Positions 14,173 through 63,745 of a stretch of DNA of 64,000 nt are shown here, piece by piece. Each line of letters opens with the position of its first letter. The stretch's first letter is position 1. The position numbers and the translations under genes are program-made. The notes beneath the pieces are model-generated. The model did not search any database. It saw only the letters and a program-made list of their open reading frames with translations, and was not told where the DNA came from. The stretch covers positions 32,001-96,000 of the IMG/VR virus record IMGVR_UViG_3300028920_000043; one strand, written 5' to 3'. This stretch comes from a virus.

Positions 14173-16593
14173 CTATAGTACCGGCTCTCCGTTCAACGAT
14201 GTAACCGGGGCTGGTGCGCGTCCATCAAGATCCGCAGTATAGACATCTGTGTTTCCGTCATTCACCGTTCCGCTTGCGCGTCTTGCTCTAATCACAAACT
14301 GCCAGACCTCATGCTCTGCTGCTGTCAATCCACTTTCCGTATGCTCATAGAAATTGACACCATCGGAATACGCAACAGTGAAGAGTGGCGTATTATAATC
14401 TATCGTCCCAGTTCCACTGTCCGTGTAAACTGCAAAGTCCTCTGGTAGTGGTCGTGAGAAATCAGAAAAGTAAGCCCATGAAAAGTACGCTCCACCGTTT
14501 GGCCTTGCTTCAACATATAAATCAGTTGAGCCCACATCCGACCGATCTATCTCCTCATGAGGAAAGCCAGGCTTATTAGGCGGCTCGGTATCCGGAATCC
14601 ACAATACATGGCAATCCGTATTTCTTTCTATATGTCCTGCCGAATCCACTGCCCTTAATCCAAACCCCCATCCACCATTTGCCAATACTGGCGATGTCCA
14701 TTCCTGCACTCCCGCACTGACTTGATCTACAACGGTTCCCCAATCCGGAGGAGCATCATCTACTCCGGCATTATCATAAATATAAATCTTATCCAGATCG
14801 GAATCGGTTGGATCGATCCATGTTATCTTAATCTTTGGTCCCGCGATCTCCTCAAGAACTACATTGGTGACCGGTTCCGGAAAAGAATCAATCGTTACTG
14901 AAATATCTTTCACCGTGCTTTCGTTTCCTACTTCATCCACAGCAACGACTCGAAACTTATACGTGCCATCATCCAAATGCTCAGTCAAATGATAATATAG
15001 GACCCATTGAATCTCATAGACTATTCTTGCATCTTTCGATACTTCCAAATCCCTAGAATAGGCCAACTCCCCATCCCGGTGCATTTCCAAATCTGTTTCA
15101 AACAAAAGATCCGCAGTCTTGTCCAGGAGAGTATTCAAAGCATAGGCCATTTCTCCATCTGCAGTCTCTGTGAATCCTGCGTACTTGTAAACTACAGAAC
15201 CGTCCTTTTTCAGAGATCCTAAATAATCATAAGATATCTCTCCGTCTTCCTCAAGCTCTATAGAATAAGGCTCAGTTGATGGAGTAAAGCTTGCGATATG
15301 ACGAGCGATTCCATTGGAGAATCTAATCTCGTCATAGAATCCATCCATGGCTGAAAGCACTCCACCGTCAGATGTGGTGATGTTTGGAAATCTAAACTCG
15401 CCTGAGAAGTTAGAAAATGTTATAGAGAGTGGTGCCGTTCCAAGAAGATCACCATCCTTGAAAGCATACACAGTATTTCCAAACCGACAGATTTCAAAAT
15501 GTACCCACTCTTCTCCTGATCCAAACCCTGGTGACCAATCAATGCCCACTCCGAAAGGCGTATCCGCGGATTCTCCGTTTACAAAAATATCAGAATTGCC
15601 ACCAGCATTATAAGGGTAAACATAAATATAATTAGCAGCATCTTGTCTTTGGCTGAAGCCTGCCACTCTATCATCAGTTGAGTACAATGGGTAGAACCAA
15701 AAATCAATCGTCCAGTCACCATTCAAAAACCAATCATCAGAATCTGGAATAGCAAAATACGAAACACTGTCAAAGCGTTTCCATAGGGATCCAAGTCCAA
15801 ACTTCTTCACACTCTTAATCAGTTTGGCTTGAGGTAATCCTGATGAAGTAAATACGTGTCCGGTATCATCCGTAAATGGAGTCGGATTGTCTGTTGTTTT
15901 TGGCTGGACTAAAACTTTTGTATTTCCATCAACCGTGAACTTCGTAGTCGGCTTGGAAAAGTTTGTGGTGTATCGAGCATTATCACTAATCCGCAGAACT
16001 GCCATATGTCCTTGCCAGGGTCTTACAATATTCTGCTTTCTTGCAAGATGAAACGTTCCACCACTGAAACTAGGAATGGTATCGGAATCCGTAGCCGTTC
16101 CAATGCTCGTACCATCCACAAACATTTCATAAGACGTTCCTTGCTTCACTACTGCCAAATGATAATACGTGAACTGATTCAAGCTAGTTGCTTTTGAGAT
16201 ATCTATGATTGTTGCACCACCGCTGACCACCGTGAATCTCAGATTAGCCCCATCATACCAAAAGCCCCAAGCATTGTTGTCATCAATTCTATATCCACAG
16301 ATGCCATTATCAACCGGCCACGAAATCGGATTGTAATTGTTGAACACGTAAGTCTCAACCGTAAAGTCTGTTCCGGTGAGATCAAAATCAGAATCGGAAG
16401 GAGAGTTGAATCTATAACCACTGCTGAAGTACAGAATCCCTTCACCGTCCGTGAACGGATGGCGATATGCAGCGCACTGATTTTGACAAGTGACAGCATG
16501 ATCCGAAGTACTGAAATCTTTCAGACTCTGTTGCTTATCGTCTTCATCACAATGAAGAATCAGTTTGGTATATTCATCAATTCCGCCAGCCAT
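14173..16593 (-). CDS. Tail fibre/spike: 2 LamG (ConA-like) domains, 14-aa repeats, FN3-like domains
   Basis: DFTVETY / DWTIDFW, HLAVV, DEIRFSNGIAR LamG signatures; YKFRVVAVD.GNES and WGFGLRAVD FN3 signatures. Confidence 0.8.
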   Translation of the reverse strand: MAGGIDEYTKLILHCDEDDKQQSLKDFSTSDHAVTCQNQCAAYRHPFTDGEGILYFSSGYRFNSPSDSDFDLTGTDFTVETYVFNNYNPISWPVDNGICGYRIDDNNAWGFWYDGANLRFTVVSGGATIIDISKATSLNQFTYYHLAVVKQGTSYEMFVDGTSIGTATDSDTIPSFSGGTFHLARKQNIVRPWQGHMAVLRISDNARYTTNFSKPTTKFTVDGNTKVLVQPKTTDNPTPFTDDTGHVFTSSGLPQAKLIKSVKKFGLGSLWKRFDSVSYFAIPDSDDWFLNGDWTIDFWFYPLYSTDDRVAGFSQRQDAANYIYVYPYNAGGNSDIFVNGESADTPFGVGIDWSPGFGSGEEWVHFEICRFGNTVYAFKDGDLLGTAPLSITFSNFSGEFRFPNITTSDGGVLSAMDGFYDEIRFSNGIARHIASFTPSTEPYSIELEEDGEISYDYLGSLKKDGSVVYKYAGFTETADGEMAYALNTLLDKTADLLFETDLEMHRDGELAYSRDLEVSKDARIVYEIQWVLYYHLTEHLDDGTYKFRVVAVDEVGNESTVKDISVTIDSFPEPVTNVVLEEIAGPKIKITWIDPTDSDLDKIYIYDNAGVDDAPPDWGTVVDQVSAGVQEWTSPVLANGGWGFGLRAVDSAGHIERNTDCHVLWIPDTEPPNKPGFPHEEIDRSDVGSTDLYVEARPNGGAYFSWAYFSDFSRPLPEDFAVYTDSGTGTIDYNTPLFTVAYSDGVNFYEHTESGLTAAEHEVWQFVIRARRASGTVNDGNTDVYTADLDGRAPAPVTSLNGEPVL

Positions 16594-17224
16594 CGTCTAC
16601 TACCTCTTGGAATGCTGTATTAATAACAGAAGCATAAGCCTTTTCTATCTGAACTCCTGTCGGATTCAATTTCAAAAACTTAACTATTCTGTCAATTTCA
16701 TATTTCTTATTTCTCAATATTCTCTCGAAACTGCAATGGAGCACTGGATAAGCTCCATCATTCTCTCGTACCCAATTTATTATCTCCGTATAATCCCTCA
16801 AGCGATTGAGCATCGTCCCACTCAATGGAGCATCGTCAGCGTCTCGGTAGTGTATGGATTGCGCCATTGCAAACACATCTCTCCAGACACAGATGACATA
16901 AGGATTCCTCACTGATGAAATAATCTGCTCTATGTAAGTATAGAGTAACTGATCCTTCCAGCCCCATACGTTGTAAGTTTTGTTTCTTTCTTCAATAATC
17001 GGTTTTATCTTATCACCGATCTCGCTGTGCTTGCCTTCAAAAGCCAATGGGTAACTCTCCCGAGTAAACGTCCAGTCCTCATAATCGTAACCAAACCAGG
17101 ACGGCTCGAACTCTTCAGTCTTTCCCATGAAGATTCCGAGATGATCCATGATCTTCGCCACGCTGGACGTTCCACCCCTACCCAGCCCCATTACTAATAT
17201 AGTCTGACAGTTTGTATTTTCCAT
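16577..17224 (-). CDS. Sulfotransferase-family (P-loop, PAPS-binding) protein
   Basis: ILVMGLGRGGTS (5'-PSB loop), WGWKDQ, VWRDVFAMAQS (3'-PB), CSFERIL. Start moved to ATG 17224. Confidence 0.78.
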   Translation of the reverse strand: MENTNCQTILVMGLGRGGTSSVAKIMDHLGIFMGKTEEFEPSWFGYDYEDWTFTRESYPLAFEGKHSEIGDKIKPIIEERNKTYNVWGWKDQLLYTYIEQIISSVRNPYVICVWRDVFAMAQSIHYRDADDAPLSGTMLNRLRDYTEIINWVRENDGAYPVLHCSFERILRNKKYEIDRIVKFLKLNPTGVQIEKAYASVINTAFQEVVDDGWRN

Positions 17225-17783
17225 TATCGAAATCAACCAATCTCTTTCTGTTGAACCCAACCAATGCCTTCTCAACTCTACTCTCATCAATATCCAAAAA
17301 CGCCAACATCTTTTCAACTTCTCGTTTCGGATTCCGTATTAAGCGCTCGAAGCTCAATAGTAAAAATGGATACGAACTTTCAGAAATGAAATCCAAAATC
17401 TTTTGATATATTACCAAACGACTTCGGATGAACGATTTTGGAACATACTTAACCTTGTCTCTGTTTGTAACCGAATCAAATGCCGCTATAGGATCTCTGA
17501 ATACAAAAATCAATCTTGGGTTTCTAATCTCGTGAATAATCTCCAATCGATTAACCAAGAACGGATCCTTCCAACCCCAAATGTCAAACTGTTTATTCCG
17601 CTCTTCAATCTTAACGCGCATCTCATCCAGACTCTTTCCTACAAAATCTATATCCTCGAAATTTCCAGCCTCCTTGAATTGATAACCAAAGAATAATCCG
17701 GCACTGATGAGTATGCTGGCAATGGCAGAAGTGCCACCTCTTGCCGTTCCAAGAATAACAATTGTCTTTTCGTTAGTCAACAT
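17178..17783 (-). CDS. Sulfotransferase-family (P-loop, PAPS-binding) protein
   Basis: IVILGTARGGTS, NFED, WGWKDP, VFRDPIAAFDS, LSFERLIRNP. Paralog of the adjacent gene. Confidence 0.8.
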   Translation of the reverse strand: MLTNEKTIVILGTARGGTSAIASILISAGLFFGYQFKEAGNFEDIDFVGKSLDEMRVKIEERNKQFDIWGWKDPFLVNRLEIIHEIRNPRLIFVFRDPIAAFDSVTNRDKVKYVPKSFIRSRLVIYQKILDFISESSYPFLLLSFERLIRNPKREVEKMLAFLDIDESRVEKALVGFNRKRLVDFDNGKYKLSDYISNGAG

Positions 17784-20700
17784 TTACCAATACATCATCC
17801 AATAAAACATCAGGCGTTCCCCCTTGTCCCTGATCCCAATAAATACGATACTTAACAACATCCCCGGAATTAGATCCTTGCCACGTCAGAAATGCTTTAT
17901 CACCCACTTGAGAATAATCGAAAGTTCTGGTACTCCAGGTAAACGGTTTGGCAATTACATCTATAATATACTTGCCTCCGCGTGCCATGCCTCCTATTAC
18001 TCGTCTGAAATCATCTTCCTCTTTTATGTTCTCTGCATACAGCGCACCATTCCGATACACGTCAAATAATACTTGCCCTGCATACCCCGCTGGCTTGCTC
18101 GTGTAGTCCCAGGTTGCTATTACTGAATCTTGCGAAGCAGGATGTTGAATTACTTTTATCCAATCCATCCACTCCTCTATCATATCATACACGAAAGAAC
18201 CGTCCTTCACCGCGGACTGATTGTACTGATACAGCAAGTTTCCATCTTTGTAAAGGGGCCCAGTATACATGTAAAAGATCGGACCGTCTACCTGTAATAA
18301 TTGAATCAACTGATAGGCAAATGCTCCATTCTTCGCCACATCCAGAACTGTATCGTACACGATAGAACCATCTTTTATCAACGTCCCCTTGTAGGCATAT
18401 GCTATATTGCCATCGATCTCGAACCGGTTGATTATATCATATAGAATTCCACCATCTTTTTTGATGTCATTTAGAATTCTATAGAGTACTTGCGCGTCTT
18501 TGATGGGAACGCCTGAATATCGATATAATAGACTTCCATCTTTCACCACTGACTTAACATAATCATAAAGTACTTGTCCATCCTTCAGGTACTCATTAAT
18601 ATACTTGTAAAGAATTCCTCCATCGGCATGTGGGTATTGTTGATAGTAGTCATAGACAACTTCAGCATCCTTTACCAAATTGGAAAGATAATCATAAACA
18701 ACTTGACCGTCCTTACTTAATTCTTTTAGAATCTCATATAGTATATCGGAATCTTTTGAAAGCTTAGAATGATAGTCATATAGAATTGGTCCATCTGATT
18801 TTATCTTCCCATCGTAACCATATAAGATATCTCCATCACTTCCTATGAAGACATCCCCAATAGCGTAAGTAATAGGACCATCCGATGTCCACTCTTTTGT
18901 GTATTCAGAATTCGGTGGCGTAAAATCGGAAGTCCATCGGGCGATCCCTTTGCTGATCCGCGGTTCGTCTATCCTTCCAGCCAAATAATTCCCATCCCAG
19001 CGTCTGCCGTAGTAAACACCATTCATATCCACGCTGTTCGAATTCGACCAGTTGGATCCCTTCTGCACGCCATCCACAAAGAATTTAACGGTGCCGCTGG
19101 TCCTTATCATCGCCATGTGCATCCATTCGCCTATTTTTATATCTGAATCAGAAAACTTTGTTGACGATCCTCCCAGCATAACATCCCACCGATTACCCGC
19201 CTTGAATGGTTGAATATAAAGTTGATTGCTGGTAATAGAACTGATGAACATATCAGTGGCGGCTTGGGCGTCCAAAAGTAGCCACCCTTCAACTGTGAAA
19301 TCTCCTGTTCCAAAATTCCAATCATCGTGGTCGGCAATAGAAAGATAATCGGTGGTGCCATCAAATATACACGATCCTCTCCCAAATCTTCCGCAGGTTC
19401 TTACTTTTACATTTCCATAAGGTCTCAATGCTCGATTGCTGCTAGAGCTATCAATTACACCGCCACCATGTATTAATAACTTTGTGTAGGAATCAGCAGT
19501 GTACTTTGATGTTTCTGGTGTAAAGCCTGAAGTCCATCTGGCTATCCCTCTTGAGACTCTAAACTCCGTAATTCTGCCGGTCAAATCCATCGTACCGTTT
19601 CCCCACTCTCCTATTTTCTTTGCTTCATCCTTAGTCACGATACTACCAGAAACAGTAATATCAATATCCTTAACCCCGTTTATGAACGTCATCCAATTAT
19701 TACCGTTTCTAACAGCGGCGAAATGATTCCAAGTATTCAAGGTTAAGGAGGTAGACCCTATACCATTACCGCCCGGATCCGCATTTATTAAATTCCATGA
19801 ACTCCCGTTACCAGATACCCAAAGATTAATATTTCGCGTTCCTTGATAATGATAGTCAAATCCAAACCAGTAATCTGTCGATCCAGCAAATAGAGCGAAT
19901 CTGCCTTCTACCGTTGGATAAAACCAGAAATCAACGGTTAAGTCGTCTGATCCAAAATCAAAATCAGGAAAGTTTCTTATGGACAAATAATCATTGGATC
20001 CGCTAAAAATCATCTCCCATTGATTATCCACTAGAGGCTTCGTTACTTTTACATAAGCATCTCCGGAACCAGTAATCGTATGGGAAGACCCTGATGAATC
20101 TTCCGGTGTCGTATCGCCTTCCACATCGTTGGCGTGGATTAATAGTTTTGTGTAAGAATCAGAAGAATATTGAGTGGACTGTGGTGTAAATGCGGAAGTC
20201 CACCTAGCCACTCCTTTGGAAATTCTTATCTCGGTCAGATACCCTTTGAATACTCTGGAGGAATAATACGCGTCCCTACCAATCCCTAATAAGCTGTTTG
20301 GATCGTTTACAGAACTGCTTCCAATATCTGAAGAAGCACTTCCCGTTCCCATAGCAACGCCATTCAGGTAAGCCGTAACGGTGGAGCCATTTCTTACCAG
20401 AGCTATGTGGCTCCAAGCATCGAAAGTGACATTCTCTGCATCATAGGATCCGTAATCATCGGATCCAGAAAAGACAACCACTCTCCATTTACTTGAAGTA
20501 TGTCCTATAAAAATTCCTATAGTTGTATTACCAGAACCGGATCGAGTAGTAAGAATGTACGGATCGGATGCCCCCGATATAGGATATACCAAGAAATCTA
20601 AAGTGAAATCACCTGAACCCAATTCCCAATCTGCCGAATCTGGTGTAGTAAAATAATCTCCAGTTCCATCAAAAACCAGTATCCCTTTACCATCATTTAG

Positions 20701-21498
20701 CGGATGTGTTTTATCTGAATAAACATCTCCAACGGTTGTTACAAAATGTCCAGAATCACTTTCGTCTTTTGCGGCAACTGTCAGGTCTGGTTCATCAGTA
20801 TGGATTAATAGTAGTGTATTGGCATCTTCTGCATACTGTGAAGTCTCTGGAGTGAAACCAGACGTCCAACGGGCTATATCGGAAATTCGCATTTCCGTGA
20901 TATACCCTTTATAATATCCATTTCCGCCATCCCATGTAGCCCATCCAAGTCTAACAGAACCACCATAAGCCAAATCCAAATCGGTCGAAATACTAGAATC
21001 AGAATCTTCCAAAGTACCATCTACAAATAGGTAAAGATTACTTCCACTCCTTACCACTGCCACATGATGCCAAGTCCCAGTAGCGAAAGTATTCGTTGAT
21101 GTTAAAATTGGGTCACCTTCTGGTTGCCAATGAACACTTACCTTTTGAGCTTGTCCAACATTATTGTATCGAATAGCAAACCCATTAGCCCAACCGCCTT
21201 GAGTTGCTATAAAACTAGGATAGTTTGCAGAAGATCCATCGTCCTTAAACCAAAAGTCAATCGTAAAGGCATTGCTTCCAAAATTAAAATCATCCGAATC
21301 TGGTATGTGAAGATAGTCACCGGACCCATCAAAGTACAAAGCACCCCTCCCGTCCAATAAAGGATGGGAGAAGTGCTGTGCATCTCCATTTGCAGTTATG
21401 GTATGATTTTGTCCCGAGTAGTCTTGGAAATTCTGACCAGCGTCGGGACCATTGAAATGATCAAGAAGTTTCGTGTATTCATCGATTCCTACAGGCAT
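17773..21498 (-). CDS. Tail fibre with 4 LamG (ConA-like) domains, 17 x ~14-aa repeats and C-terminal FN3-like segment
   Basis: Four domains each end in (T/D)ExR(I/V)S(x)x(I/V)ARWTSxFTP, with FTIDFW and WHHVAVVR motifs; a KDGxhhYxY repeat array follows. Confidence 0.85.
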   Translation of the reverse strand: MPVGIDEYTKLLDHFNGPDAGQNFQDYSGQNHTITANGDAQHFSHPLLDGRGALYFDGSGDYLHIPDSDDFNFGSNAFTIDFWFKDDGSSANYPSFIATQGGWANGFAIRYNNVGQAQKVSVHWQPEGDPILTSTNTFATGTWHHVAVVRSGSNLYLFVDGTLEDSDSSISTDLDLAYGGSVRLGWATWDGGNGYYKGYITEMRISDIARWTSGFTPETSQYAEDANTLLLIHTDEPDLTVAAKDESDSGHFVTTVGDVYSDKTHPLNDGKGILVFDGTGDYFTTPDSADWELGSGDFTLDFLVYPISGASDPYILTTRSGSGNTTIGIFIGHTSSKWRVVVFSGSDDYGSYDAENVTFDAWSHIALVRNGSTVTAYLNGVAMGTGSASSDIGSSSVNDPNSLLGIGRDAYYSSRVFKGYLTEIRISKGVARWTSAFTPQSTQYSSDSYTKLLIHANDVEGDTTPEDSSGSSHTITGSGDAYVKVTKPLVDNQWEMIFSGSNDYLSIRNFPDFDFGSDDLTVDFWFYPTVEGRFALFAGSTDYWFGFDYHYQGTRNINLWVSGNGSSWNLINADPGGNGIGSTSLTLNTWNHFAAVRNGNNWMTFINGVKDIDITVSGSIVTKDEAKKIGEWGNGTMDLTGRITEFRVSRGIARWTSGFTPETSKYTADSYTKLLIHGGGVIDSSSSNRALRPYGNVKVRTCGRFGRGSCIFDGTTDYLSIADHDDWNFGTGDFTVEGWLLLDAQAATDMFISSITSNQLYIQPFKAGNRWDVMLGGSSTKFSDSDIKIGEWMHMAMIRTSGTVKFFVDGVQKGSNWSNSNSVDMNGVYYGRRWDGNYLAGRIDEPRISKGIARWTSDFTPPNSEYTKEWTSDGPITYAIGDVFIGSDGDILYGYDGKIKSDGPILYDYHSKLSKDSDILYEILKELSKDGQVVYDYLSNLVKDAEVVYDYYQQYPHADGGILYKYINEYLKDGQVLYDYVKSVVKDGSLLYRYSGVPIKDAQVLYRILNDIKKDGGILYDIINRFEIDGNIAYAYKGTLIKDGSIVYDTVLDVAKNGAFAYQLIQLLQVDGPIFYMYTGPLYKDGNLLYQYNQSAVKDGSFVYDMIEEWMDWIKVIQHPASQDSVIATWDYTSKPAGYAGQVLFDVYRNGALYAENIKEEDDFRRVIGGMARGGKYIIDVIAKPFTWSTRTFDYSQVGDKAFLTWQGSNSGDVVKYRIYWDQGQGGTPDVLLDDVLVNVD
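18168..18888 (-). repeat. Protein-level tandem repeat, 17 units of 14-15 aa (xKDGxhhYxY)
   Basis: SDGPILYDY, KDGQVVYDY, KDGQVLYDY, KDGSLLYRY, KDGNLLYQY and similar units. Confidence 0.9.
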
Positions 21499-21537: not shown

Positions 21538-22053
21538 TTATGACCCGGCTGTCTGGCCTTTAAGTCTCAATGTCGCCGGAACTGACGCGTCTGCCTGAGT
21601 ACCTGCTGGAATCGTTTGCTTCAACCAAACTCCTTGTGCTGATCCGGCAGTCAAGCTGCCACTGTTGGCAACATCGATTGCCGCGCCTTCTGATGGAGCG
21701 TCAGCAAATACGATGTCACTGGGTGCAGTGAGCGGATTGGGAATACTCTTGGTATCATCGAGTGACGATGCCAATCCGATCTGAATCTGCCCAGCGTGCT
21801 CTTGTGCCTGAATCCAAACCTTCGATGCTGTGAGCGGTGTGGTTGCGTTCTTGTTCTTTGCGAATACCTTCTGGAACCGAATCACATCCGAACCGCCTGC
21901 TTCTTGTGCTGCGACTGTATAGAACACCTGACCCAATGTTCCATCCAGCTCTGTCTCTGAACCGTCTTCTCCGCCACCTGCCGGTGCACCATCACTGGGC
22001 GCCATCATTGACGAAAGAATCCACAATAGATCACTTGCGACTACTGGAGACAT
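21538..22053 (-). CDS. Virion structural protein (tail-associated)
   Basis: AGGAGG SD before MSPVVASDL. Ala/Gly/Ser-rich beta protein (RFQKVFAKN, GVWLKQTIPAG) of a type I recall from tail modules. Confidence 0.55.
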   Translation of the reverse strand: MSPVVASDLLWILSSMMAPSDGAPAGGGEDGSETELDGTLGQVFYTVAAQEAGGSDVIRFQKVFAKNKNATTPLTASKVWIQAQEHAGQIQIGLASSLDDTKSIPNPLTAPSDIVFADAPSEGAAIDVANSGSLTAGSAQGVWLKQTIPAGTQADASVPATLRLKGQTAGS

Positions 22054-23959
22054 TCGTTTCCTCCTTTCCAAGTTCTGTCAAACTTTTCACCTTGATATTG
22101 GGGCCATATAAAATTCCCGCATCGGTGATATTAAAAAACTCAATTTGCTTATAAGCGCTTGTCAATTCTACCAAGGTTTCTCGCATCTCGTTATAGAGCA
22201 GATTGGTAATTACTGCTCCGTCTTTAACATCCTTGGCAATCAATAAACCTTCTTTCTGAATATCCTCATATCTTATCGTCTCATCGTAATACTTTTTACC
22301 GCCGGTGTATGCCAAATCAACTCCACCAATAAGAATCTTTTTGCAACCCATACCGATCAAACAACTGATACCGGTAAATACAACGGATAAGGCAGATCCG
22401 AGAATCGTCAGTTTAACTTCATCCAGTATGTTAGGATGTACCGATCCAATTCCCATAGTATGGAAAAATCTCTTCTTACCCTTCCACGCTTTAATCACTT
22501 CAGGGTGAAGTACTGACGACGCCAGCATCTCATGCTTCGATGTATCCACTCCATCAAAATGCCTTACCACATTATCCTCTGGATGGATTGCAATAAAGTA
22601 GTCTGGCTCTATACCCCACTCACACATAATCCTGAAACCTGAATTAGCACCTATTACTATGCGCTTGGTTCTTCCCATCCCCAGAAATCCCTTCAAATCG
22701 TCTTTAATATTATTAACTGATGGTGCGGAGGAGATCAATACTCCCACCTTATCCTCAGACGATTTGAATAGATCATCCAGAGTTTTCGATTTGGAAAGCT
22801 CAGGTTTATTCCTCTTGAAGTTTTCTGCCCAAACATTCTTCCACGTATTCATGGTTAAATCATTCACCGCTTCTCTTGCATTTCCCAACGTAACTGGTAC
22901 CATAACTCTATTCTCATCAGCGCCAGTAAACTTCAAAACATCTTTGGCTCTGTTTTCATAAGTATGATTTTTTAGAACGTGACTTCTTGCTCGTGCAATC
23001 AACTGCTCACGTTCTTTTCTGTTCTTCATGTAGTGCTCTATGATCTTCGGTATCTCGTCTATCTCATCATAAAGTGCTACAATATCATCCGGAAATAGCT
23101 CCTTGACTGCTTCACGCTTTTTCCATGTCAGCAATAATGCTCCTGCCGCGGGCACTTCAAATACTCTCGGAGATACCGTGGTAGATAAAATCCCCGGATT
23201 GGTTCTTCCGTATTCAGAAACCATTTCGTTTCTGGGAATATCCAATGCTATCTTTGTACCGGCATCGAACTTCGCCATTTCTTCTATTGATACGCTTCCC
23301 CTTCTCCAAATAGAATTCAAATAATCCGACTTGAAATTTCTTCTTGAGTTTCCAACGATCTTCAAGCGGTACCGTTTCAATTCCTTTTCTAGCTTATCCA
23401 GTGCATCCATTCTTTCCGCGAATAATGATCCGCCAATTAAGACATCAGACAAATAGTTTCTGGGAACGCGGCGTGGGTAAAATACATTAGGATCCACAGC
23501 AGTGGGTAAGTACATCGTCTTATCTTCACCATGTACTTTTACTGTATTCTTTTCATTGGTAAAGACATAATCATAGTAAGGCGTGAATTCTTTTGAAACA
23601 TTTACCTGCTGAGGCTCATCTGTCAAATATACTGCTGTTTTGATTCCAAGCTTCTTTACATTGGTTATTATCCCAGTATGAATATTGGCACCATGAATGA
23701 CAAAGACAAAATCTATTGCATACCTCACGCAATAGTTCAAGATGCCTTGAGCAATAAGCTCAAAGAAATCATTCTTGGACATATTCAATTCTGGATCGAA
23801 TATCGAGTTTACTTGAATCGCTTTTTGAAAGAAATCCAAAACCCGATTGGTTTCATAATCCCAGACAGTATGCCCAAGACGCCGAAATGCTTCTGAAAAG
23901 CCTTCACCAACATCCTTCGTACTAAACGCAAATCCACTACCCACCATTAAAATATTCAT
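22031..23959 (-). CDS. CgeB/GT-B glycosyltransferase fused to a Maf (MAF_flag10/DUF115-like) domain
   Basis: N-term YLTDEP, SPRVFEVPAAG, HTYENRA. C-term SSAPS, GIEPDYF, SVVFTGISCLIGMGCKKILIGGVDLAY. Confidence 0.8.
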   Translation of the reverse strand: MNILMVGSGFAFSTKDVGEGFSEAFRRLGHTVWDYETNRVLDFFQKAIQVNSIFDPELNMSKNDFFELIAQGILNYCVRYAIDFVFVIHGANIHTGIITNVKKLGIKTAVYLTDEPQQVNVSKEFTPYYDYVFTNEKNTVKVHGEDKTMYLPTAVDPNVFYPRRVPRNYLSDVLIGGSLFAERMDALDKLEKELKRYRLKIVGNSRRNFKSDYLNSIWRRGSVSIEEMAKFDAGTKIALDIPRNEMVSEYGRTNPGILSTTVSPRVFEVPAAGALLLTWKKREAVKELFPDDIVALYDEIDEIPKIIEHYMKNRKEREQLIARARSHVLKNHTYENRAKDVLKFTGADENRVMVPVTLGNAREAVNDLTMNTWKNVWAENFKRNKPELSKSKTLDDLFKSSEDKVGVLISSAPSVNNIKDDLKGFLGMGRTKRIVIGANSGFRIMCEWGIEPDYFIAIHPEDNVVRHFDGVDTSKHEMLASSVLHPEVIKAWKGKKRFFHTMGIGSVHPNILDEVKLTILGSALSVVFTGISCLIGMGCKKILIGGVDLAYTGGKKYYDETIRYEDIQKEGLLIAKDVKDGAVITNLLYNEMRETLVELTSAYKQIEFFNITDAGILYGPNIKVKSLTELGKEETNVSSSRK

Positions 23960-24002: not shown

Positions 24003-24383
24003 TCACGCAATCGATCTTAAAAAGTTAGCACTGAATGTAGCCCAATGCCTGTCTTCAGTGCCGTAAGACAAGCCCTGAAAAAAACAATTAGAATATTCAT
24101 AGGTAAAATCATACAAGGATGCCGGAGCTGATACCGCCGATAGCTGTTCCAGTAACTGCTGTAAGTAGGCTATCAATGTCATCCTGCTCCGAGTCTCTTG
24201 GGTGATCCAACCCGCCACTGAAAGAGACTGTTGACCCCCTCCGAGATCTTTAATATAAACTCCTTCGGCTCTCGGTATTTGTTCCGTCAGCAAATTACGC
24301 TCAACATTAGGAACAGCATAAGAATGAGTTCCAATCTTTACTGTTCCAAACGTAACTACCGAACCGTGTTGAAGTATTGCCAT
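24003..24383 (-). CDS. Putative distal tail protein
   Basis: Directly after the tape measure gene; IPRAEGVYIKDLG motif; tube-like size. Confidence 0.5.
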   Translation of the reverse strand: MAILQHGSVVTFGTVKIGTHSYAVPNVERNLLTEQIPRAEGVYIKDLGGGQQSLSVAGWITQETRSRMTLIAYLQQLLEQLSAVSAPASLYDFTYEYSNCFFQGLSYGTEDRHWATFSANFLRSIA

Positions 24384-29995: not shown

Positions 29996-30012
29996 TTCTG
30001 ATTCCTCAAGAC

Positions 30013-38292: not shown

Positions 38293-38339
38293 AAAAGAAA
38301 AACGAAAGGAGAGCGGCTGGTGAGGGCCGCTCCCCTTCC
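38293..38339 (-). terminator. Rho-independent terminator after the major capsid gene
   Basis: Minus strand GGAGCGGC-CCTCACCA-GCCGCTCT stem followed by CCTTTCGTTTTTCTTTT. Confidence 0.8.
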
Positions 38340-45086: not shown

Positions 45087-45107
45087 TGATCTTCTTCGAG
45101 TAATAGA

Positions 45108-47696: not shown

Positions 47697-47700
47697 ACTC

Positions 47701-48048: not shown

Positions 48049-48057
48049 AATTCACCA

Positions 48058-52860: not shown

Positions 52861-52864
52861 TCCT

Positions 52865-53959: not shown

Positions 53960-53969
53960 GGTTTCAATC

Positions 53970-55709: not shown

Positions 55710-55748
55710 TAAAATCTTCTTTTCAAAATCTTAAACGGAGTTAAGATT

Positions 55749-57602
55749 TTATTCAGCGTTTGCTATTCTCGTACCTCTCCAGTCGATGTTCTCTGTAGCG
55801 GTAACTCGTAAACGCATATTCCCACCACTGACATCGACTGAAATAGAAAGTCCAGAAATACTGGAACCTGTTTTCAATTTGGCATACTGGGTTGAATCCA
55901 CTGACCCGGATCCATCGTGCAAGGCATGAACTTCATATGCTTCACGTTTCGTTCCGGTTGCATTGGACATTACTGTGACAAGCCACCACGCCTCACAGTA
56001 ACTTGCTGTGGCAACCTGATCCATTGTCAATCCAGAAGAAGCGTCCTGATTGTCTGCGCTGAACTTCTTTGGAGCGTTGATAGTAACATCCAACTCGGTG
56101 TCACCAATACTGCCTGCCTTGACGTAAAGCTGATTGGATCCATTCTCACCAATCGTATCATCGTCAATCTTAACGGCAACACCGTTTGAGGTCACACTAA
56201 TAACAGTAGCCAGGTTCACCCCACCAGTCGCATCAGGCTTCACCTGAAGATCATCTGATCCATTATCCTCCAGACCATTACCAGCGAAGTCTGCCGGTTC
56301 AATATCCAACAGATAAGAACTAACTCCGTTCTGCTTCAGACCGTCACCGGCAATCTCACTTGCATCAATCTCAAGATCATCAGCATTGACTTGAACACCC
56401 TTGTTTGCATCGCCAACATTGATAGTATTACCACTCTTGGTAAGACCGGCGCCGGCGATAACCTGACCCGCTCCAGAGAACTGAACCCATGTAATATTGG
56501 TTGTACCAACTGTTATGGGCTCGTCCGTAGTACACAGATAACCATTATCAGCTTGAGTAGTGCCTTCTTCCACAAACGTATAGGCTGCCGCGAACTCGTC
56601 TGCTTCGTCATTATCCGTTGCTCTTGTCAATTGCCATGGAGTACCACCATCACCAACAGTGGTCAGGACATAAATACCATTATACGGGGCATTACCCCCA
56701 GTTTCATTCTTGATCAGAACGCGGTCACCCTGTACCAGGGTAATGTCATCCTGCGAAGGGAAAGCACCGTTGGTGTTTTTAGTAAGGGTAGCGCCAACAC
56801 CTAATGTTCCATTGTTATAGGTATATGCATCTACCAATGCCGCAGTCGTTGCTGCCCTTGAGGATCCTTTACCGTGTAAGCCTTGCGCTATATTATCAAC
56901 GTAGAGTTTATTTGCCACATCGGTGTCGCTGGTTGGCGCATCGACCACCGTCATAGCACCGCCAGTCTCAACGTTGATAGCACCACCGGATTGAATCGTT
57001 ATTGTTCCGTTGGTTTGACCATCCTGCTGAACAACTGCATCCAAATCCGTTTGGTGTGGATTCGTTGTATCATCAGCGTGAGTTTTCAAAGCGCCATCAA
57101 GATCTGACGCCTTGGCCATTACCGTACTGTCAACGGAAATATAATTCGTATTTGATACATCTGAATCAGCACCAATGGCATCATCTAACGCTTCAATGTT
57201 GTCATTGACATCCTCTCCGGCAACAATCGGATTGTTTGTACGAGAATTGGCAGCGGGGTCAGCACCAATTTCGGCATCAAGTTTTCCGGCGGCAGTTTCA
57301 AGAGAATCATCATTGGCAATATGATGAGTACTTGAATAACTGGGCAAAACATTCCCGGTTGAATCCTTGCCCATGAAAGTATTCTGATAGCCATCTTCAA
57401 GACTGGCACCAGAGCTGTCAACGATCAAGGTCCAATCCGTATTCCCTGCACCTGTCTTATGGTATGTGGATCCATTAGTTCTCAGGTACAGAGATCCGAT
57501 AGGTGCTTCAACTCCTCCTCCTGATGTTGGATCATCTACACCATCAAGAACCTCAACATCATTTTCTAAAATTAGGCCTTCGCCTATTTTGAACTTACCC
57601 AT
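55749..57602 (-). CDS. Fibre / head-decoration protein
   Basis: HADDTTNPH, APTSDTDVANKLYVD, GDRVLIKNE...NGIY, TDEPITVGTTNITWVQFSGAG..AGAGLTKSGNT. Confidence 0.72.
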   Translation of the reverse strand: MGKFKIGEGLILENDVEVLDGVDDPTSGGGVEAPIGSLYLRTNGSTYHKTGAGNTDWTLIVDSSGASLEDGYQNTFMGKDSTGNVLPSYSSTHHIANDDSLETAAGKLDAEIGADPAANSRTNNPIVAGEDVNDNIEALDDAIGADSDVSNTNYISVDSTVMAKASDLDGALKTHADDTTNPHQTDLDAVVQQDGQTNGTITIQSGGAINVETGGAMTVVDAPTSDTDVANKLYVDNIAQGLHGKGSSRAATTAALVDAYTYNNGTLGVGATLTKNTNGAFPSQDDITLVQGDRVLIKNETGGNAPYNGIYVLTTVGDGGTPWQLTRATDNDEADEFAAAYTFVEEGTTQADNGYLCTTDEPITVGTTNITWVQFSGAGQVIAGAGLTKSGNTINVGDANKGVQVNADDLEIDASEIAGDGLKQNGVSSYLLDIEPADFAGNGLEDNGSDDLQVKPDATGGVNLATVISVTSNGVAVKIDDDTIGENGSNQLYVKAGSIGDTELDVTINAPKKFSADNQDASSGLTMDQVATASYCEAWWLVTVMSNATGTKREAYEVHALHDGSGSVDSTQYAKLKTGSSISGLSISVDVSGGNMRLRVTATENIDWRGTRIANAE

Positions 57603-58950: not shown

Positions 58951-60498
58951 TTAAGCTACATCATTGAATAAACTGGAAAGTAAGTATTCCATCTCTCGTG
59001 GATCCACATCAAAATCCATGAAAAGTTTTTCACCATCCATACTAATAATATCCTTCATCTTATCCTCAGCCGTCACCGATGGCTTGACAGCTGGTTGAGA
59101 TTGAACGGGCTTAATCGGATTTCCACCTTGCGTCTGCTGTCCGGGAACGAAAGGAGCATCTCCCCACGGTACAGGTCCAAGTCCCTTCAATGCTCGAACT
59201 TCATTAATGGTATTGACCGCGTTCTGCACATAAGTCTTATCTATATTTGCTTGCGTTTCTACATCAGCGCGGTCAATATCATCAAAATCCGCTACCACAT
59301 CATAAATACCAAGACCATCCTGAACGATCTCTTTGGTATATGTATAGGATTCCAAGGCTAAAATAGGCTTGATTGCGTTTGCTTTGAATACTTCAATCTG
59401 CTGAACTGAATTGAGACGCCCAGTTCCCACATCTCTTATTCCAAGAACAATCGGTTGCATGGAATAACATGACATAACTTTCTGAAGCAACCATCTTGCA
59501 TACTCCATGAACTCCATGTCTTTATTCTTGCCCGTTAGATCGAGAAATTCTGGTTTAGTTCCCACAAATGCCATTTTATGAGAGCGCCCTTTGAATTGAG
59601 CCCTCCACCAATCGGCAAAACGTTTCAGTGCCGGCTTCTTCATTCCTCCCAAACCAACAATGCCGGACGGCATTGCATTGTTCTGAAAGAACTCGAGATT
59701 GTGGCGATCAGCAAACAGATCGGCAGCGATTGTTTGCTTCAATGATTCCAGGGGTGACAATCCATAAACTGATCCGGGTTGCGGATATTGGATCATGTAG
59801 ATCAGTTCATCCTTTTGAAACTCTGCGGCAGGTTCTCTGGGATTTTCAGGAAGGTATTGTAGATATGCCCGATTCGGAATAAGATTGCCATGCTTGTTTA
59901 TATTTTTTCGTATGTATCTTGATTCTTGATTATAGATCTCTGCCAACTTTCCGGTTGTATCTTTTACTTTCTCCATGCACCCAGAATCCGATACCAATAA
60001 ATCCAGTATCGTCTTCTTTCTGATATCCATGAAGCTTTCTTTTTCGAGATTAGGATCTTCAAAGAAGTCCATAACCGCATCCATATTTCTCTTGGTCTTA
60101 TCCGGAATGCCTGTTGCTTCAGGACGCTTGGGACGGACCCTTACATGGACTGCTGTTGCCGTCTTTACTATGAGATCAATTATTGCACGAGACCAGGAAT
60201 GGCTCCGATAGACTCCCCACATGAGATCAAGGGAGACCAAAGGTTCTCTAGGTACCCCATTTCTTCCCCCGTACCCCATTGCAGTCCGTAACTGCTGATT
60301 AATCGTTCCGCGCCGATTGCTCGAATCTCCTCGGGGCTTACCAAAATCGGGTCCGGTATCATTGTCGTCCGCCTTTATCATCTCTGCCTTTCTTTCGATA
60401 TGAACAGCAGGCACCGGCAAGACTTTTGTTTCCTCAGCTTCTGTTTCTGATCCAGGAGATGATCCCAGACGCTTGAAGAATGTAATAATTTTACTCAT
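58951..60498 (-). CDS. Portal protein (HK97-like)
   Basis: YGLSPLE, FFQNNAMPSG, DMEFME, TINEVR..GLGPVPWGD. Start moved to ATG 60498 because the track's TTG lies in the repeat. Confidence 0.95.
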   Translation of the reverse strand: MSKIITFFKRLGSSPGSETEAEETKVLPVPAVHIERKAEMIKADDNDTGPDFGKPRGDSSNRRGTINQQLRTAMGYGGRNGVPREPLVSLDLMWGVYRSHSWSRAIIDLIVKTATAVHVRVRPKRPEATGIPDKTKRNMDAVMDFFEDPNLEKESFMDIRKKTILDLLVSDSGCMEKVKDTTGKLAEIYNQESRYIRKNINKHGNLIPNRAYLQYLPENPREPAAEFQKDELIYMIQYPQPGSVYGLSPLESLKQTIAADLFADRHNLEFFQNNAMPSGIVGLGGMKKPALKRFADWWRAQFKGRSHKMAFVGTKPEFLDLTGKNKDMEFMEYARWLLQKVMSCYSMQPIVLGIRDVGTGRLNSVQQIEVFKANAIKPILALESYTYTKEIVQDGLGIYDVVADFDDIDRADVETQANIDKTYVQNAVNTINEVRALKGLGPVPWGDAPFVPGQQTQGGNPIKPVQSQPAVKPSVTAEDKMKDIISMDGEKLFMDFDVDPREMEYLLSSLFNDVA

Positions 60499-60514
60499 TG
60501 AAGATCCCCAAATA

Positions 60515-60627
60515 TTCAAGCAGAGCTAGTTCAAAAGCTTTCACGCATGAAAGCTAACCATCCAGTCCAATTTGAAACTTTCAAGCAGAGCTAGTTCAAA
60601 AGCTTTCACGCATGAAAGCTAATGAAC
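60515..60627. repeat. Palindromic repeat locus 5 (two units, 65-bp period, opposite orientation to loci 1 and 4)
   Basis: TTCAAGCAGAGCTAGTTCAAAAGCTTTCACGCATGAAAGCTAA occurs twice; cores at 60537-60554 and 60602-60619. Confidence 0.95.
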
Positions 60628-60658: not shown

Positions 60659-60847
60659 TTATGATCGATCAGACCCAGGAGAATCCTTAAACTTATCCTT
60701 AAGGGATTCCACAAGATCTTTAAGCTCAATAAGGTTCTGATGAAAACCTCTCAATTCTATTATGACTATCAGCCCCAAGAGAGCATTAAGAAACCAAAAA
60801 ATCAAAAAGCATGTAAAGAATAAAGCATTCATATTAAGCAAATCCAA
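60659..60847 (-). CDS. Small membrane protein
   Basis: Hydrophobic N-terminal TM segment; overlaps the terminase stop. Confidence 0.5.
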   Translation of the reverse strand: MDLLNMNALFFTCFLIFWFLNALLGLIVIIELRGFHQNLIELKDLVESLKDKFKDSPGSDRS

Positions 60848-62498
60848 TATCCGATCCGGACTCCGTTATGACATCATAAATAGAACCACTTACTGCGTCC
60901 CATACATCCTTAGTTCCTTTAGAGCCATCTTCAAAGCGCTTAGGATGATCTACTTTCTTTCCCCCTTTATCTTCTAACCCTTTCGCTTCTTTAACCAAAA
61001 CAGGATGGTATGGAATCAAGGCACGGTTATCTAGTATGCAAGCCTGTACTTCCTCAAAAACAGTCAAGCCTCTATCAACAGATAATAAATCGACATCGTA
61101 ACCGCGTTCCTCTAACTGTTGTCTGGTATCTAAAGATAATGCTTGGTCAAATGTTATTACTCCAAACTGCATACCCAAACCGGATAGCTGATAGATAAGC
61201 TCTCGCACCACTCGAAGTTTTACATTCTTATTGGGTTCGGGCTTCCACCATGCTATTATATCCGTCTGAATTATCGGCTCTTCCCAGTCCTCTTCCTCTT
61301 CATCGTCCTTCCTCTTCTTACCTGTTACGCTTTTCCAACCCTCCAGATGTGAAACAGCAAAAGCACAAGGATCTTTTATTGATCCCAGGTCACCATGGGC
61401 ACAATAAATAGTTCCGCGTTGAGGTCTGAAATTTGGATCCAACTGCTTCTTAGTAATACTGAAATTATAAGACAAATCTTTTCTAAAATATTCGTCCAAG
61501 CTCTCTACTTGCTCTTCTGTTCCCCAAACCGAATTAACTGATCTGGTGGGAATGGCAGCAAAGTTTCGCCTGGCTTTGATTGGATTCTTTTTGAATTCTG
61601 ATTTGAAATCATCCTTGGATACCTTCTCATTTATTTCCCATGTAGCTTTCTGAGACACAAAAGCAGAATCTTTCTCTTTTCTTAACTCCTCAAACTTTTG
61701 CATCTCAAAACCATCAACCGATCTTGGTGAGGTAATGCCGATGAGTTTATAATGATTTGGAAAACGTGTGAAGCATGAGTCATAAAACGTATCCCAGCAT
61801 GCCTCCGCGTTTGGCTTGTCATTTACATCCGTGAAATATGCAAGCTCATCCAGTATACCAACTCTAACAGCATACCCCAACCAAGAAATCGATCTTGAGT
61901 TACCAGATAATACAAAGAGATTCTTATTGAATCTAATCTCTCCCCCGAATGGTAAAAACTCACCGAGATCCAACCCTTTGAATGAGTGCTCGACTTGTCT
62001 GAACCATTCAGAATGTTTTAACCGATTAACTGTAGAACCAAAGACAACATCCTGGGCTTGGCGACCGGCAGTCGATGTATTTATATAAAATATGGGATCA
62101 CCGGGCGCCAAACCATAAAAGGATTGAGGACTTCTGTAGCCCAAATCAATATAGGCCTGACGAGCCATAATACAAGCAACGGCAAAACTTTTACCACTCC
62201 CCTTTCCCCATAATAAAACAGCCTGTCTCACATTTGGCTGATCAATGGCTATAAGGGTATCCAAAACTTTATTGAAAATCTTGCCGCCCTTCGCCGGTGG
62301 GAATAAAGGCTTACTCCAACGTTCCAAGGCCATAAATTCCCTTCCGAGATAAAACTCTTCAGCGTCAACTGGATACTCCTCATAAACGCCTTGTTCTTCT
62401 TTTATTCCCGTGGCGATTTGAGAGAGCATCCAACTAGGACTTACACGCTTCTCTTCTCGGCGTTTTTGTGCTGTAGGCCTATCCTGCAGAATTCCCAT
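60834..62498 (-). CDS. terL: Terminase large subunit
   Basis: Walker A WGKGSGKS, Walker B GILDELA, ITSP, nuclease AHGDLG...FDQ...KVDHP...KDVWDA. Confidence 0.92.
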   Translation of the reverse strand: MGILQDRPTAQKRREEKRVSPSWMLSQIATGIKEEQGVYEEYPVDAEEFYLGREFMALERWSKPLFPPAKGGKIFNKVLDTLIAIDQPNVRQAVLLWGKGSGKSFAVACIMARQAYIDLGYRSPQSFYGLAPGDPIFYINTSTAGRQAQDVVFGSTVNRLKHSEWFRQVEHSFKGLDLGEFLPFGGEIRFNKNLFVLSGNSRSISWLGYAVRVGILDELAYFTDVNDKPNAEACWDTFYDSCFTRFPNHYKLIGITSPRSVDGFEMQKFEELRKEKDSAFVSQKATWEINEKVSKDDFKSEFKKNPIKARRNFAAIPTRSVNSVWGTEEQVESLDEYFRKDLSYNFSITKKQLDPNFRPQRGTIYCAHGDLGSIKDPCAFAVSHLEGWKSVTGKKRKDDEEEEDWEEPIIQTDIIAWWKPEPNKNVKLRVVRELIYQLSGLGMQFGVITFDQALSLDTRQQLEERGYDVDLLSVDRGLTVFEEVQACILDNRALIPYHPVLVKEAKGLEDKGGKKVDHPKRFEDGSKGTKDVWDAVSGSIYDVITESGSDIGFA

Positions 62499-62500
62499 GA

Positions 62501-63745
62501 TTACTCCTTAGCAGATGTCGACTCCGGTTCCTTTTCTTTTTCTTTCTCTGGCTCTTTGGTTTTGCTTGGTTTCTTCTTCAAATCCTTATCGAAGAATATT
62601 TGACCTGCTTGATACTGCTCAGCAGAGAAAGTACAGATTCTCTCGAGAATCTTAACCGCCCTCTTTCCCGTATCTTCAAGAGAGAGTGTGGTTTTCAATT
62701 TAGAAAGCTTATCAGCTTTCTGTTTCTGCGCTTTCTTATCCTTGCCGTCTGATTCCGATGCCACTATAACTTCAATGGCTTTCTTTATGTAATCGCTCTC
62801 ATCTCCCCACTTAGCATAGGTAAGAAGATCCCCATACGTTTCCCGAAGTACCGGAAGATCGTAAGCGATACAAGGCTTATCAAGGCATAATGCCTCTCCC
62901 GGTGGCATACCAAATCCCTCAAACGATGACGGAAATAGTAATGCCTTTGATTCTGCCAGATGATGAAACTTAGCCTCATCCCCAATCTCATCGATAAGGG
63001 AAATCTTCACATCCGACTTTCTTGCCAGGGATTCCAATGAACTTCGGATTTCAGGTTTCAGAAATCCACCGATCATTACCAACTCAAAATCCTTTCCCTG
63101 GCGCTTGAGCTCCGCGGCTACCCTTACAGGGGTCTTATAATTCTTATGCTCGATGAATCTGGAAATAAAGATGAGCTTGTCTTTTTCCTGCACATCCTTT
63201 ATTTCCGAAATGATTTTGGAATTGAGCGGGGTATTGAGAACGTAAAATGTCATCGGATTGGCCTCATCCAAATATTCCACCGCATACTTTTTACCGATCT
63301 CGGTGGAACAGAATATTCCGGAACAGCCCATTGCGGAAAACTTGATACCGCGCCATTGCTGTTCAACGTGCTTTGGAATATCACCGTTATACTTAACGCT
63401 GTATTCCCAGTTCGGAACATCAAAGATGAGAAGTAGCAGATGCTTCAGAAAGCGCTTTGCAAAGAACTTCGCACGTTCCGCGGCATCGAATGGAACTCCC
63501 ATGACAAAATCATAGTCATTGACTCGATTCTCAATCTGCTTTTCCCACTTCTCTGAGGTTACCACGCCAACGCTGGAATCCAACACACTCAGTACCGGTG
63601 ATGGTCTTTCCGTCAAGACATCAACTCCAATACCCTGACCTACCAGAGCATTAGCAAGAAGACATGCATGATATTTTCCACCGGCATAGAACTTATAGTT
63701 ACTGTTCATAAATAGGGCTACTTTACCCTTTTTGCCGAAACCCAT
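62501..63745 (-). CDS. GT4-family glycosyltransferase
   Basis: GGKYHA, ISRFIEHKN, FPSSFEGFGMPPGEA, YDLPV; paralog of the GT4 domain at 38254. Start moved to MGFG after GAGGAGG. Confidence 0.88.
   Translation of the reverse strand: MGFGKKGKVALFMNSNYKFYAGGKYHACLLANALVGQGIGVDVLTERPSPVLSVLDSSVGVVTSEKWEKQIENRVNDYDFVMGVPFDAAERAKFFAKRFLKHLLLLIFDVPNWEYSVKYNGDIPKHVEQQWRGIKFSAMGCSGIFCSTEIGKKYAVEYLDEANPMTFYVLNTPLNSKIISEIKDVQEKDKLIFISRFIEHKNYKTPVRVAAELKRQGKDFELVMIGGFLKPEIRSSLESLARKSDVKISLIDEIGDEAKFHHLAESKALLFPSSFEGFGMPPGEALCLDKPCIAYDLPVLRETYGDLLTYAKWGDESDYIKKAIEVIVASESDGKDKKAQKQKADKLSKLKTTLSLEDTGKRAVKILERICTFSAEQYQAGQIFFDKDLKKKPSKTKEPEKEKEKEPESTSAKE

Follow-up and report, generated by a model that had tools for sequence, protein, structure and literature searches.

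Glycosyltransferase genes kept beside virion genes in a clade of uncultured phages: a candidate system for glycosylating the phage particle

To our knowledge, glycosylation of the virion by enzymes that the virus itself encodes has been shown among phages only in the mycobacteriophages, and otherwise in giant algal viruses. In the chloroviruses (PBCV-1 and its kin), the capsid is glycosylated in the cytosol by virus-encoded enzymes, for example the multi-domain protein A064R, which joins two glycosyltransferase (GT) domains to a methyltransferase domain. The Maf family of enzymes likewise acts in the cytoplasm and independently of lipids, as O-glycosyltransferases of a protein, flagellin. For the mycobacteriophages Che8, Corndog and Myrna, three reports describe phage GTs that glycosylate the virion, with glycans at the C-termini of the capsid and tail tube subunits (PMC12363180, PMC11256854, PMC12619734, the last citing Freeman et al. 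2023); in Corndog, gp37 and gp38, which have weak matches to families GT2 and GT25, lie between the portal and protease genes (PMC12363180). Here we analyse a stretch of 64,000 nucleotides (‘the window’), comprising bases 32001–96000 of the 111,210-bp IMG/VR record IMGVR_UViG_3300028920_000043, from an uncultured bacteriophage of marine sediment. All long open reading frames (ORFs) of the window are on the minus strand, and seven GT domains are encoded within a single co-directional late operon, in genes that abut or overlap virion genes. A first-pass annotation of this DNA had described such GTs, together with methylating, sugar-tailoring and sulfating enzymes, inside the late structural operon, and had invoked the mycobacteriophages as a precedent. 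Our gene map, drawn from Pfam, PHROGs and NCBIfam, recovers these enzymes at or near the places named, with the overlaps and abutments claimed; the domain assignments agree with Pfam, structure prediction and Foldseek, and the precedent is sound. Our main result is that some 40 related phages keep a GT gene beside the capsid gene, so that phages of this clade probably coat their virions with sugar.

The window resembles the mycobacteriophages in that its GTs are phage-encoded and look soluble, and in that the GT genes of Corndog, too, lie inside a block of head genes. Glycans are C-terminal in the mycobacteriophages; the predicted parallel here is a Ser-rich tail on the capsid protein, with GT genes flanking both the capsid and the tube genes. 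The GT families are different, however: small GT-A-like enzymes there, as against a GT4-GT2-GT2 protein, a GT-B protein and a CgeB/Maf fusion here. In addition, the window carries sugar-nucleotide tailoring genes, two methyltransferases, sulfotransferases and a third GT position, at the tail tip; and its host is some bacterium of marine sediment, whereas the mycobacteriophages infect actinobacteria. When Corndog gp35–38 (Che8 being left out) are compared by BLASTP with all proteins of the window, nothing falls below E 0.2, and no mycobacteriophage is among the tblastn matches of the GT4-GT2-GT2 protein. Given the lack of similarity to Corndog, we conclude that the enzymes were recruited independently.

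Using an alignment of capsid homologs (A1), we collected 79 IMG/VR loci and three loci from metagenome-assembled genomes (MAGs) and compared them by tblastn, ORF mapping and clustering. We define the clade on a quick capsid tree, where it has 56 members and a support of 100, and where the major capsid protein (MCP) of the window forms a deep branch of its own. A GT is the first or second gene past the capsid gene in 41 of the 45 clade members that can be scored, at identities down to 36%, and in none of eight outgroup genomes. Therefore, the arrangement is not a matter of chance. The capsid-adjacent GTs of the relatives are 390–940 amino acids (aa) long, and a Pfam scan of 34 such ORFs finds GT4 in 22 and GT2 in 14. 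What follows the GT depends on the lineage. In one type of relative (type A), the stretch from the GT to the neck genes contains CgeB-like GTs, GT2, a methyltransferase, a DegT/DnrJ/EryC1 aminotransferase and a GNAT protein; in another (type B), the capsid-side GT is followed by a GT2 and by a protein resembling short-chain dehydrogenases/reductases (SDRs), which we call cluster c6. Thus, the slot between capsid and neck is a fixed site whose glycan-building content varies; seen across the clade, it acts like a glycan locus that changes in content but keeps its position.

Three features of this slot in the relatives deserve a separate description. The c6 proteins (for example L092:3248–4147; alignment A3) are about 300 aa long, begin with the SDR Rossmann sequence GGLGYLG and have 6VO6 as their nearest PDB structure; the nucleotide-binding glycines are kept, and among 12 members there is no invariant catalytic Tyr or Lys, so that the protein may be a non-catalytic binder of nucleotide sugars. 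We had considered the 345-aa SDR of the window as the positional ortholog of c6, and have revised this: by hhalign c6 is only a remote homolog, and the true ortholog of the window SDR is found in a sugar cassette of another relative (37%, see below). Other clade members have weak, sub-cut-off MptE/Maf-like matches in proteins of 334–390 aa encoded between c6 and the neck (L066:14225–15397; G031, 45066–45215), and Maf-like enzymes may recur in the head module as well. In L062 and L066, finally, the capsid gene is apparently split into two ORFs, the tblastn pieces corresponding to query residues 26–115 and 150–318; an intron, an intein or a frameshift could account for this.

In the window, the gene next to the capsid gene encodes a 908-aa GT4-GT2-GT2 protein, in which comparison with the relatives confirms the third domain as GT2. 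Residues 375–609 resemble the bifunctional chondroitin polymerase (2Z86/2Z87), a likeness which suggests that the GT2 domains extend a chain after priming by the GT4 domain. The motifs E268-x7-E276, DSD462, NDD722 and DID841 are intact in all three domains. The candidate acceptor is the adjacent MCP, which ends in a short Ser-rich tail (…SLEQPSAS). Throughout the clade, all MCPs end in a short tail rich in Ser/Thr, whereas the outgroup C-terminus is different and lacks a short tail ending in Ser. In the model of the window MCP, residues 316–323, past the last strand, are coil, and the last residues have low confidence (pLDDT). The gap between the capsid and GT genes holds a strong terminator-like hairpin, called by a consensus scan only, which fits expression of the GT at the low level of an enzyme. 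As regards location in the cell, no GT of the window has more than one borderline hydrophobic stretch, so that none resembles an enzyme spanning the membrane several times.

The second position is at the tail tube gene, directly upstream of which lies a divergent GT-B gene of GT4-like type. Its Pfam score barely exceeds the cut-off, and an AF2 model built from six orthologs (pTM 0.76) is a GT-B fold. The best structural match of this model by Foldseek is a GT of chlorovirus NY-2A (3OY2, E 4e-14), followed by GlgM, PimA, PglA and SdgB; the likeness to 3OY2 is one of fold only, at 15% identity. Orthologs of this GT occur in relatives at 33–40% identity, and in six of seven scorable relatives a tube gene, itself an ortholog at 39–52%, follows 50–420 nt behind.

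The third position is in the distal tail, where a CgeB-like GT domain is fused to an MptE-like/Maf domain. The presence of the latter is clear (75.6 bits against a cut-off of 34.6), and there is also a weak match to the NCBIfam PseD domain; a sequence search against solved structures returned no match to the fusion. The architecture is rare, being found in seven proteins of a collection of 5.8 billion. In the complete, terminally repeated genome of a relative (G032; 109,578 bp), in G033 and in L101, the order is a Dit-like gene, the Maf fusion, a homolog of a 177-aa protein (p177) that travels with the fusion, and a LamG fibre; the same order in the window makes three lineages. The fusion follows the tape measure gene, as the first-pass annotation stated, but the Dit gene which it reported there is not recognised in the window, where the ORF between tape measure and fusion has 126 aa and no match. 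As for its expectation that GTs would stay beside the same structural genes in relatives, this is borne out at three places: at the capsid gene, at the tube gene, and in the distal tail before the LamG fibre. The Maf domain is shared with the flagellin GTs (Campylobacter PseD/PseE, Magnetospirillum Maf), which differ in that here the domain has a CgeB-like GT as its fusion partner and sits in a phage tail module, and in that no nonulosonic-acid synthase or CMP-synthetase has been found here. Specifically, neither PF03102 (NeuB) nor PF02348 (CMP-synthetase) is matched in the record of this phage (G000, about 80% complete) or in G032, G031 and G018; nor did the single checks of G040 (for PF02348) and of the record of L101 (for PF03102) give a match.

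One alternative is that the enzymes act on other proteins or on small molecules (the Maf fusion, for example, on host flagellin or pilin), or that the GT folds are lectin-like minor parts of the virion with little or no catalysis. Maf homologs are established to act on flagellin, the lectin-like LamG fibres are encoded alongside, and the c6 family, lacking an invariant Tyr or Lys, hints that some members are non-catalytic. A lectin-like role is contradicted by the intact catalytic motifs, which are found not only in the 908-aa protein but also in the GT4 upstream of terL, a paralog of its GT4 domain (29% over 370 aa, to residues 3–359) that carries the motif EGFG..E. Moreover, the terminator past the capsid gene argues for sub-stoichiometric expression, and the sugar-tailoring and methylating enzymes would serve no purpose if nothing were transferred. 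We give this alternative, in either form, a slim chance.

The reading that we hold with moderate confidence is that the phage adds glycans to the proteins of its virion within the cytoplasm of the host, by a soluble route independent of lipid carriers. Soluble GTs would be transcribed together with the late structural genes. In the 908-aa enzyme, the GT4 domain would start a glycan and the two GT2 domains would extend it, on the MCP and most likely on its unstructured Ser-rich C-terminal tail; the GT-B before the tube gene and the CgeB-GT/Maf fusion before the LamG fibre would do likewise for parts of the tail. The donors would be host nucleotide sugars, some of them tailored to 6-deoxyhexoses by a mobile cassette of RmlD-like, cupin and SDR genes, and the glycan would then be O-methylated by the two methyltransferases and perhaps sulfated by the two sulfotransferases, with host 3'-phosphoadenosine 5'-phosphosulfate (PAPS). 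We prefer this reading because adjacency is kept at three structural positions, because the GTs look soluble, because of the Maf domain, the hairpin and the Ser/Thr-rich MCP tails, and because no gene for lipid-linked polysaccharide assembly turned up among the proteins scanned, no search having been aimed at flippase or polymerase genes. The chloroviruses offer a parallel, in that they combine a multi-domain GT of their own with methyltransferases, and place methylated deoxyhexose glycans on the capsid without host membrane machinery, which is shown there and predicted here. They differ in being giant viruses of eukaryotes, whose capsid is of the double-jelly-roll type and whose glycans are N-linked.

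The same enzymes could in principle be aimed at the cell rather than at the virion. That is, late in infection the GTs may remodel a glycan of the host envelope (lipopolysaccharide or capsule, S-layer glycan, teichoic acid), which could, for instance, prevent superinfection or keep progeny from re-adsorbing to lysed cells; the place of the GTs in the operon would then reflect timing alone. GT4, GT2, RmlD/RmlC-like, DegT and GNAT proteins are indeed the usual content of surface-polysaccharide loci; the GT2-GT2 part has matches of 31–33% to short records labelled Listeria and Enterococcus, maybe from cell-wall glycosylation genes; and G032 carries a gene resembling GT9 heptosyltransferases. Yet such remodelling does not explain why a GT stays at the capsid gene across so many divergent genomes, or at the tube gene. 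The GTs appear soluble, and among the proteins scanned there surfaced no initiating phosphoglycosyltransferase, ABC exporter, flippase or polymerase, the last two not having been searched for specifically. We therefore regard envelope remodelling as unlikely.

If virion proteins are the acceptors, as we favour, the sugar donors have to be accounted for. The first-pass annotation listed the right enzymes downstream of the capsid gene, but in another sequence; the actual order is GT, methyltransferase, RmlD-like, methyltransferase, cupin, Zn-ribbon, SDR. The 203-aa methyltransferase, whose Pfam cut-off is 21.2 bits, has a weak NCBIfam match to the oligosaccharide methyltransferase MftM, and in the 365-aa methyltransferase protein the N-terminal 220 aa have no assigned domain. 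The RmlD-like protein scores 136 bits with TIGR01214, which is under the equivalog cut-off, and has the motifs STDYVFDG and YxxxK. The cupin may be either a sugar 3,5-epimerase or a 3,4-ketoisomerase; its score for FdtA is slightly better than that for RmlC. Both cupin and RmlD-like protein pass Pfam cut-offs but not those of NCBIfam equivalogs. The SDR has the motifs SSAAVYG and YAEAK (YxxxK) of the epimerase/reductase type, lacks the TDE motif of 4,6-dehydratases, and has epimerases (6WJB, 6VO6) as its nearest structures.

Compared with the dTDP-L-rhamnose (RmlABCD) and FdtA pathways, the window has in common a putative RmlD-like reductase core and a putative RmlC/FdtA-class cupin, clustered and conserved as a block in G032, where the RmlD-like protein (241 aa) is 42%, the cupin 34% and the SDR 37% identical. 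It differs in having no RmlA and no canonical RmlB motif, and in that the RmlD-like protein is short (236–241 aa) and below the equivalog cut-off. Indeed, no match to PF00483 (NTP_transferase) exceeds the cut-off in this phage or in four relatives, and the sole candidate for RmlB is the SDR without the TDE motif. As no NTP_transferase, CMP-sugar synthetase, NeuB or canonical dehydratase motif was found, the phage most likely only tailors the nucleotide sugars of its host, in place of making its own donors. The genes point to a late-step tailoring set, which would convert host 4-keto-6-deoxy intermediates into 6-deoxyhexoses. The proposal that the phage makes its own deoxysugar donors is consequently not supported, since NTP_transferase, CMP-sugar synthetase and NeuB were found neither in the 111-kb record nor in G032.

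Sulfation, which had also been proposed as a possibility, comes out weakened. Two sulfotransferase-fold genes do lie between the LamG fibres, and the first protein has a GTARGGTS loop (GxxRGGTS), a candidate for the 5'-phosphosulfate-binding loop; on the other hand, its Pfam scores are borderline, and the second protein qualifies only as a paralog of the first (35% identity). No adenosine 5'-phosphosulfate (APS) kinase was found in the records of this phage and of four to five relatives, and we assume that PAPS comes from the host. The linkage to fibres is not kept in G032, where the sulfotransferase is at 34 kb.

Several observations weigh against the view that the phage glycosylates its own virion. 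First, adjacency shows coupling to a structural module and does not show the identity of the acceptor. We considered Ser/Thr-rich C-termini of the tube proteins as acceptors and rejected the idea, as the tube C-termini of the relatives are not consistently rich in these residues. The NeuB and CMP-synthetase genes were not found although Maf enzymes normally use CMP-nonulosonic acids; the record, moreover, is about 80% complete according to CheckV. The GT4 domains have a further match, to PF20706 (‘GT4 in conflict systems’), and the borderline scores of the sulfotransferases have been mentioned. Lastly, in G032 the sugar cassette (43.4–46.2 kb, with some 55 kb between it and the capsid gene) and the sulfotransferase lie amid genes of DNA metabolism, the cassette next to a ThyA-like gene.

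This last point is relevant to a further alternative, that the sugars go onto phage DNA as hypermodified bases that evade restriction. The exonuclease and ThyA-like genes that adjoin the G032 cassette keep the idea alive at a low level; the present phage already modifies its DNA, by means of a 7-deazaguanine cluster; and phage GTs that glycosylate DNA do exist (bioRxiv 10.1101/2023.12.21.572611). But no ThyA-like or hydroxymethylase-like gene was found in the 111 kb of this phage, its GTs are in the head and tail modules and not with the replication genes, and multi-domain polymerase-like GTs, Maf proteins and sulfotransferases are not known as DNA modifiers. We consider modification of DNA by these GTs very improbable.

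Two details of the DNA-modification genes may be recorded here. The 7-deazaguanine cluster (499–3825 of the window) consists of a QueC-like gene, a gene for a 306-aa protein with a weak match to class-V aminotransferases, FolE fused to a phosphoribosyltransferase-like N-terminus, and a radical-SAM QueE-like gene, and is followed by a 5'-3' exonuclease (3828–4748). In G032, the ThyA-like gene directly downstream of the sugar cassette (46562–48847; L089:6562–8847) is broken by an intein with an HNH domain.

A bolder version of virion glycosylation had been suggested by the first-pass annotation, with a set of enzymes matched to each structural module. Two results speak against it. The GT upstream of terL is absent from every relative compared; and the distance of the G032 cassette and sulfotransferase from the structural genes makes these mobile accessories rather than module-matched parts, so that for them the idea of one enzyme set per module does not hold. 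The ambitious form that we can still entertain, tentatively and with more doubt than belief, is of a hypervariable virion-glycan locus at a fixed capsid–neck site in a large clade, comparable to an O-antigen locus, and with, in this phage, three target-specific transferases (for head, tube and tip) that would build a methylated, sulfated 6-deoxyhexose glycan. No tailed phage before this one would then have had a sulfated glycan coat to its name. If our preferred reading of virion glycosylation is correct, sugar coats would be an ancient, clade-defining trait of environmental phages, built by enzymes of independent recruitment; the varying set of enzymes at one fixed locus would make the coat chemically diverse and quick to evolve; and the phages would possess soluble, carrier-independent protein GTs, among them a rare GT/Maf fusion. 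Such a coat would have effects on adsorption, persistence in sediments, and evasion of recognition by hosts or grazers.

The features of the window are collected in Table 1. The HK97 gp10-like gene, whose cluster (c15) is kept in relatives, overlaps the start of the tube-side GT by 4 nt at its 3' end, and homologs of terL adjoin the portal gene in 47 related loci.

Table 1. Genes and other elements of the late operon, in the direction of transcription
Feature	Position in window	Strand	Basis and remarks
GT4, 419 aa, abutting terL upstream	62501–63760	-	PF00534, 64.3 bits
Large terminase, terL	60834–62498	-	phrog_2 only, E 4e-11
Portal protein	58951–60519	-	PF04860, 142.9 bits; phrog_2662
Large ORFs without assigned family, ~12 kb	46065–57602	-	between portal and Mu-F genes
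Mu-F-like minor head protein	42777–45086	-	PF04233; phrog_115
Prohead serine protease S78	39440–40825	-	PF04586, 45.7 bits
HK97-fold MCP	38361–39332	-	PF05065, 71 bits
Terminator-like hairpin and T-run, capsid/GT gap	38304–38339	-	14-bp stem with 9 G-C pairs, T-rich tail
GT4-GT2-GT2, 908 aa	35528–38254	-	PF00534, 73.6 bits; PF00535, 117.2 bits
S-adenosylmethionine (SAM) methyltransferase, 203 aa	34986–35597	-	PF08241, 24.3 bits
Short RmlD-like NAD(P)H sugar 4-reductase, 236 aa	34271–34981	-	PF04321, 137 bits
365-aa protein, C-terminal SAM methyltransferase domain	33173–34270	-	PF08241, 35.8 bits; PF13649, 33.6 bits
RmlC/FdtA-class cupin	32658–33152	-	PF05523 (FdtA), 33.8 bits; PF00908 (RmlC), 29.3 bits; HRH motif
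Small Zn-ribbon protein	32163–32438	-	PF09723
Extended SDR, 345 aa	31109–32146	-	PF01370, 110.5 bits
Neck genes (region)	29163–31097	-	
Head-tail adaptor	30447–31097	-	phrog_442
HK97 gp10-like tail-completion/neck protein	29163–29648	-	PF04883, weak
GT4-like, divergent GT-B, tube side	27904–29166	-	PF13692, 29.5 bits
Tail tube protein	27484–27882	-	PF18906, weak; phrog_290
Tape measure protein	24383–26785	-	PF10145, 116 bits
CgeB-like GT + Maf/MptE-like fusion, 642 aa	22031–23959	-	PF13524, 86.1 bits; PF01973, 75.6 bits
177-aa protein (p177)	21538–22071	-	phrog_13135; homologs after fusion in G032, L101
Fibre protein, four LamG (concanavalin-like) domains	17773–21498	-	PF13385, 226 bits, 4 stretches
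Sulfotransferase-fold protein 1, 201 aa	17178–17783	-	PF13469, 30.3 bits; PF00685, 27.8 bits; both narrowly above cut-offs
Sulfotransferase-fold protein 2, tandem paralog	16577–17317	-	PF13469, 19.2 bits, below cut-off; likely start 17224
Second LamG-domain fibre, 806 aa	14173–16593	-	PF13385, 70 bits

Beyond the window, the record encodes replication genes of bacterial type, namely PolA fused to a uracil-DNA glycosylase domain, DnaB helicase, RecA and ParB. These identify the virus as a bacteriophage, and on their account we rejected the idea of an archaeal virus, which had arisen from one MCP homolog in a MAG labelled Lokiarchaeota; other MAG labels among the capsid homologs are Chloroherpeton and Bacteroidales. 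By megablast there are no cultured relatives, and the top matches of the MCP in INPHARED are T5-like phages, at 25%.

The portal and Mu-F genes are separated by about 12 kb, which contain six large ORFs of 364–655 aa. None of these has a Pfam family, none has a homolog in the related loci, and a scan with Pfam and PHROGs for enzymes hidden there gave nothing enzymatic. Two of these ORFs (50026–51915 and 48058–50025) are paralogs, and a third (55749–57602) matches PHROG families of tail fibres and head decoration; Atlas returns only weak leads to phage fibres or beta-helices. The six ORFs may represent lineage-specific head fibres or ejected proteins. Within the 655-aa ORF (48058–50025), ARAGORN calls a tRNA-Ser(GCT) at 48897–48989 on the minus strand; one of the two calls must be mistaken here, either the tRNA, as a false positive, or the ORF.

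An 18-bp palindrome, GCTTTCA-N4-TGAAAGC, occurs in nine copies in the window (at 4802, 13939, 13980, 32465, 42447, 42512, 52601, 60537 and 60602), as against 0.02 expected. Eight of the nine are located in gaps just upstream of gene starts, and the remaining copy, at 52601, has one mismatch and is inside an ORF. The copy at 32465–32482 falls within the island of glycan genes, between the cupin and the Zn-ribbon/SDR genes. These palindromes may mark the transcription units of the late region.

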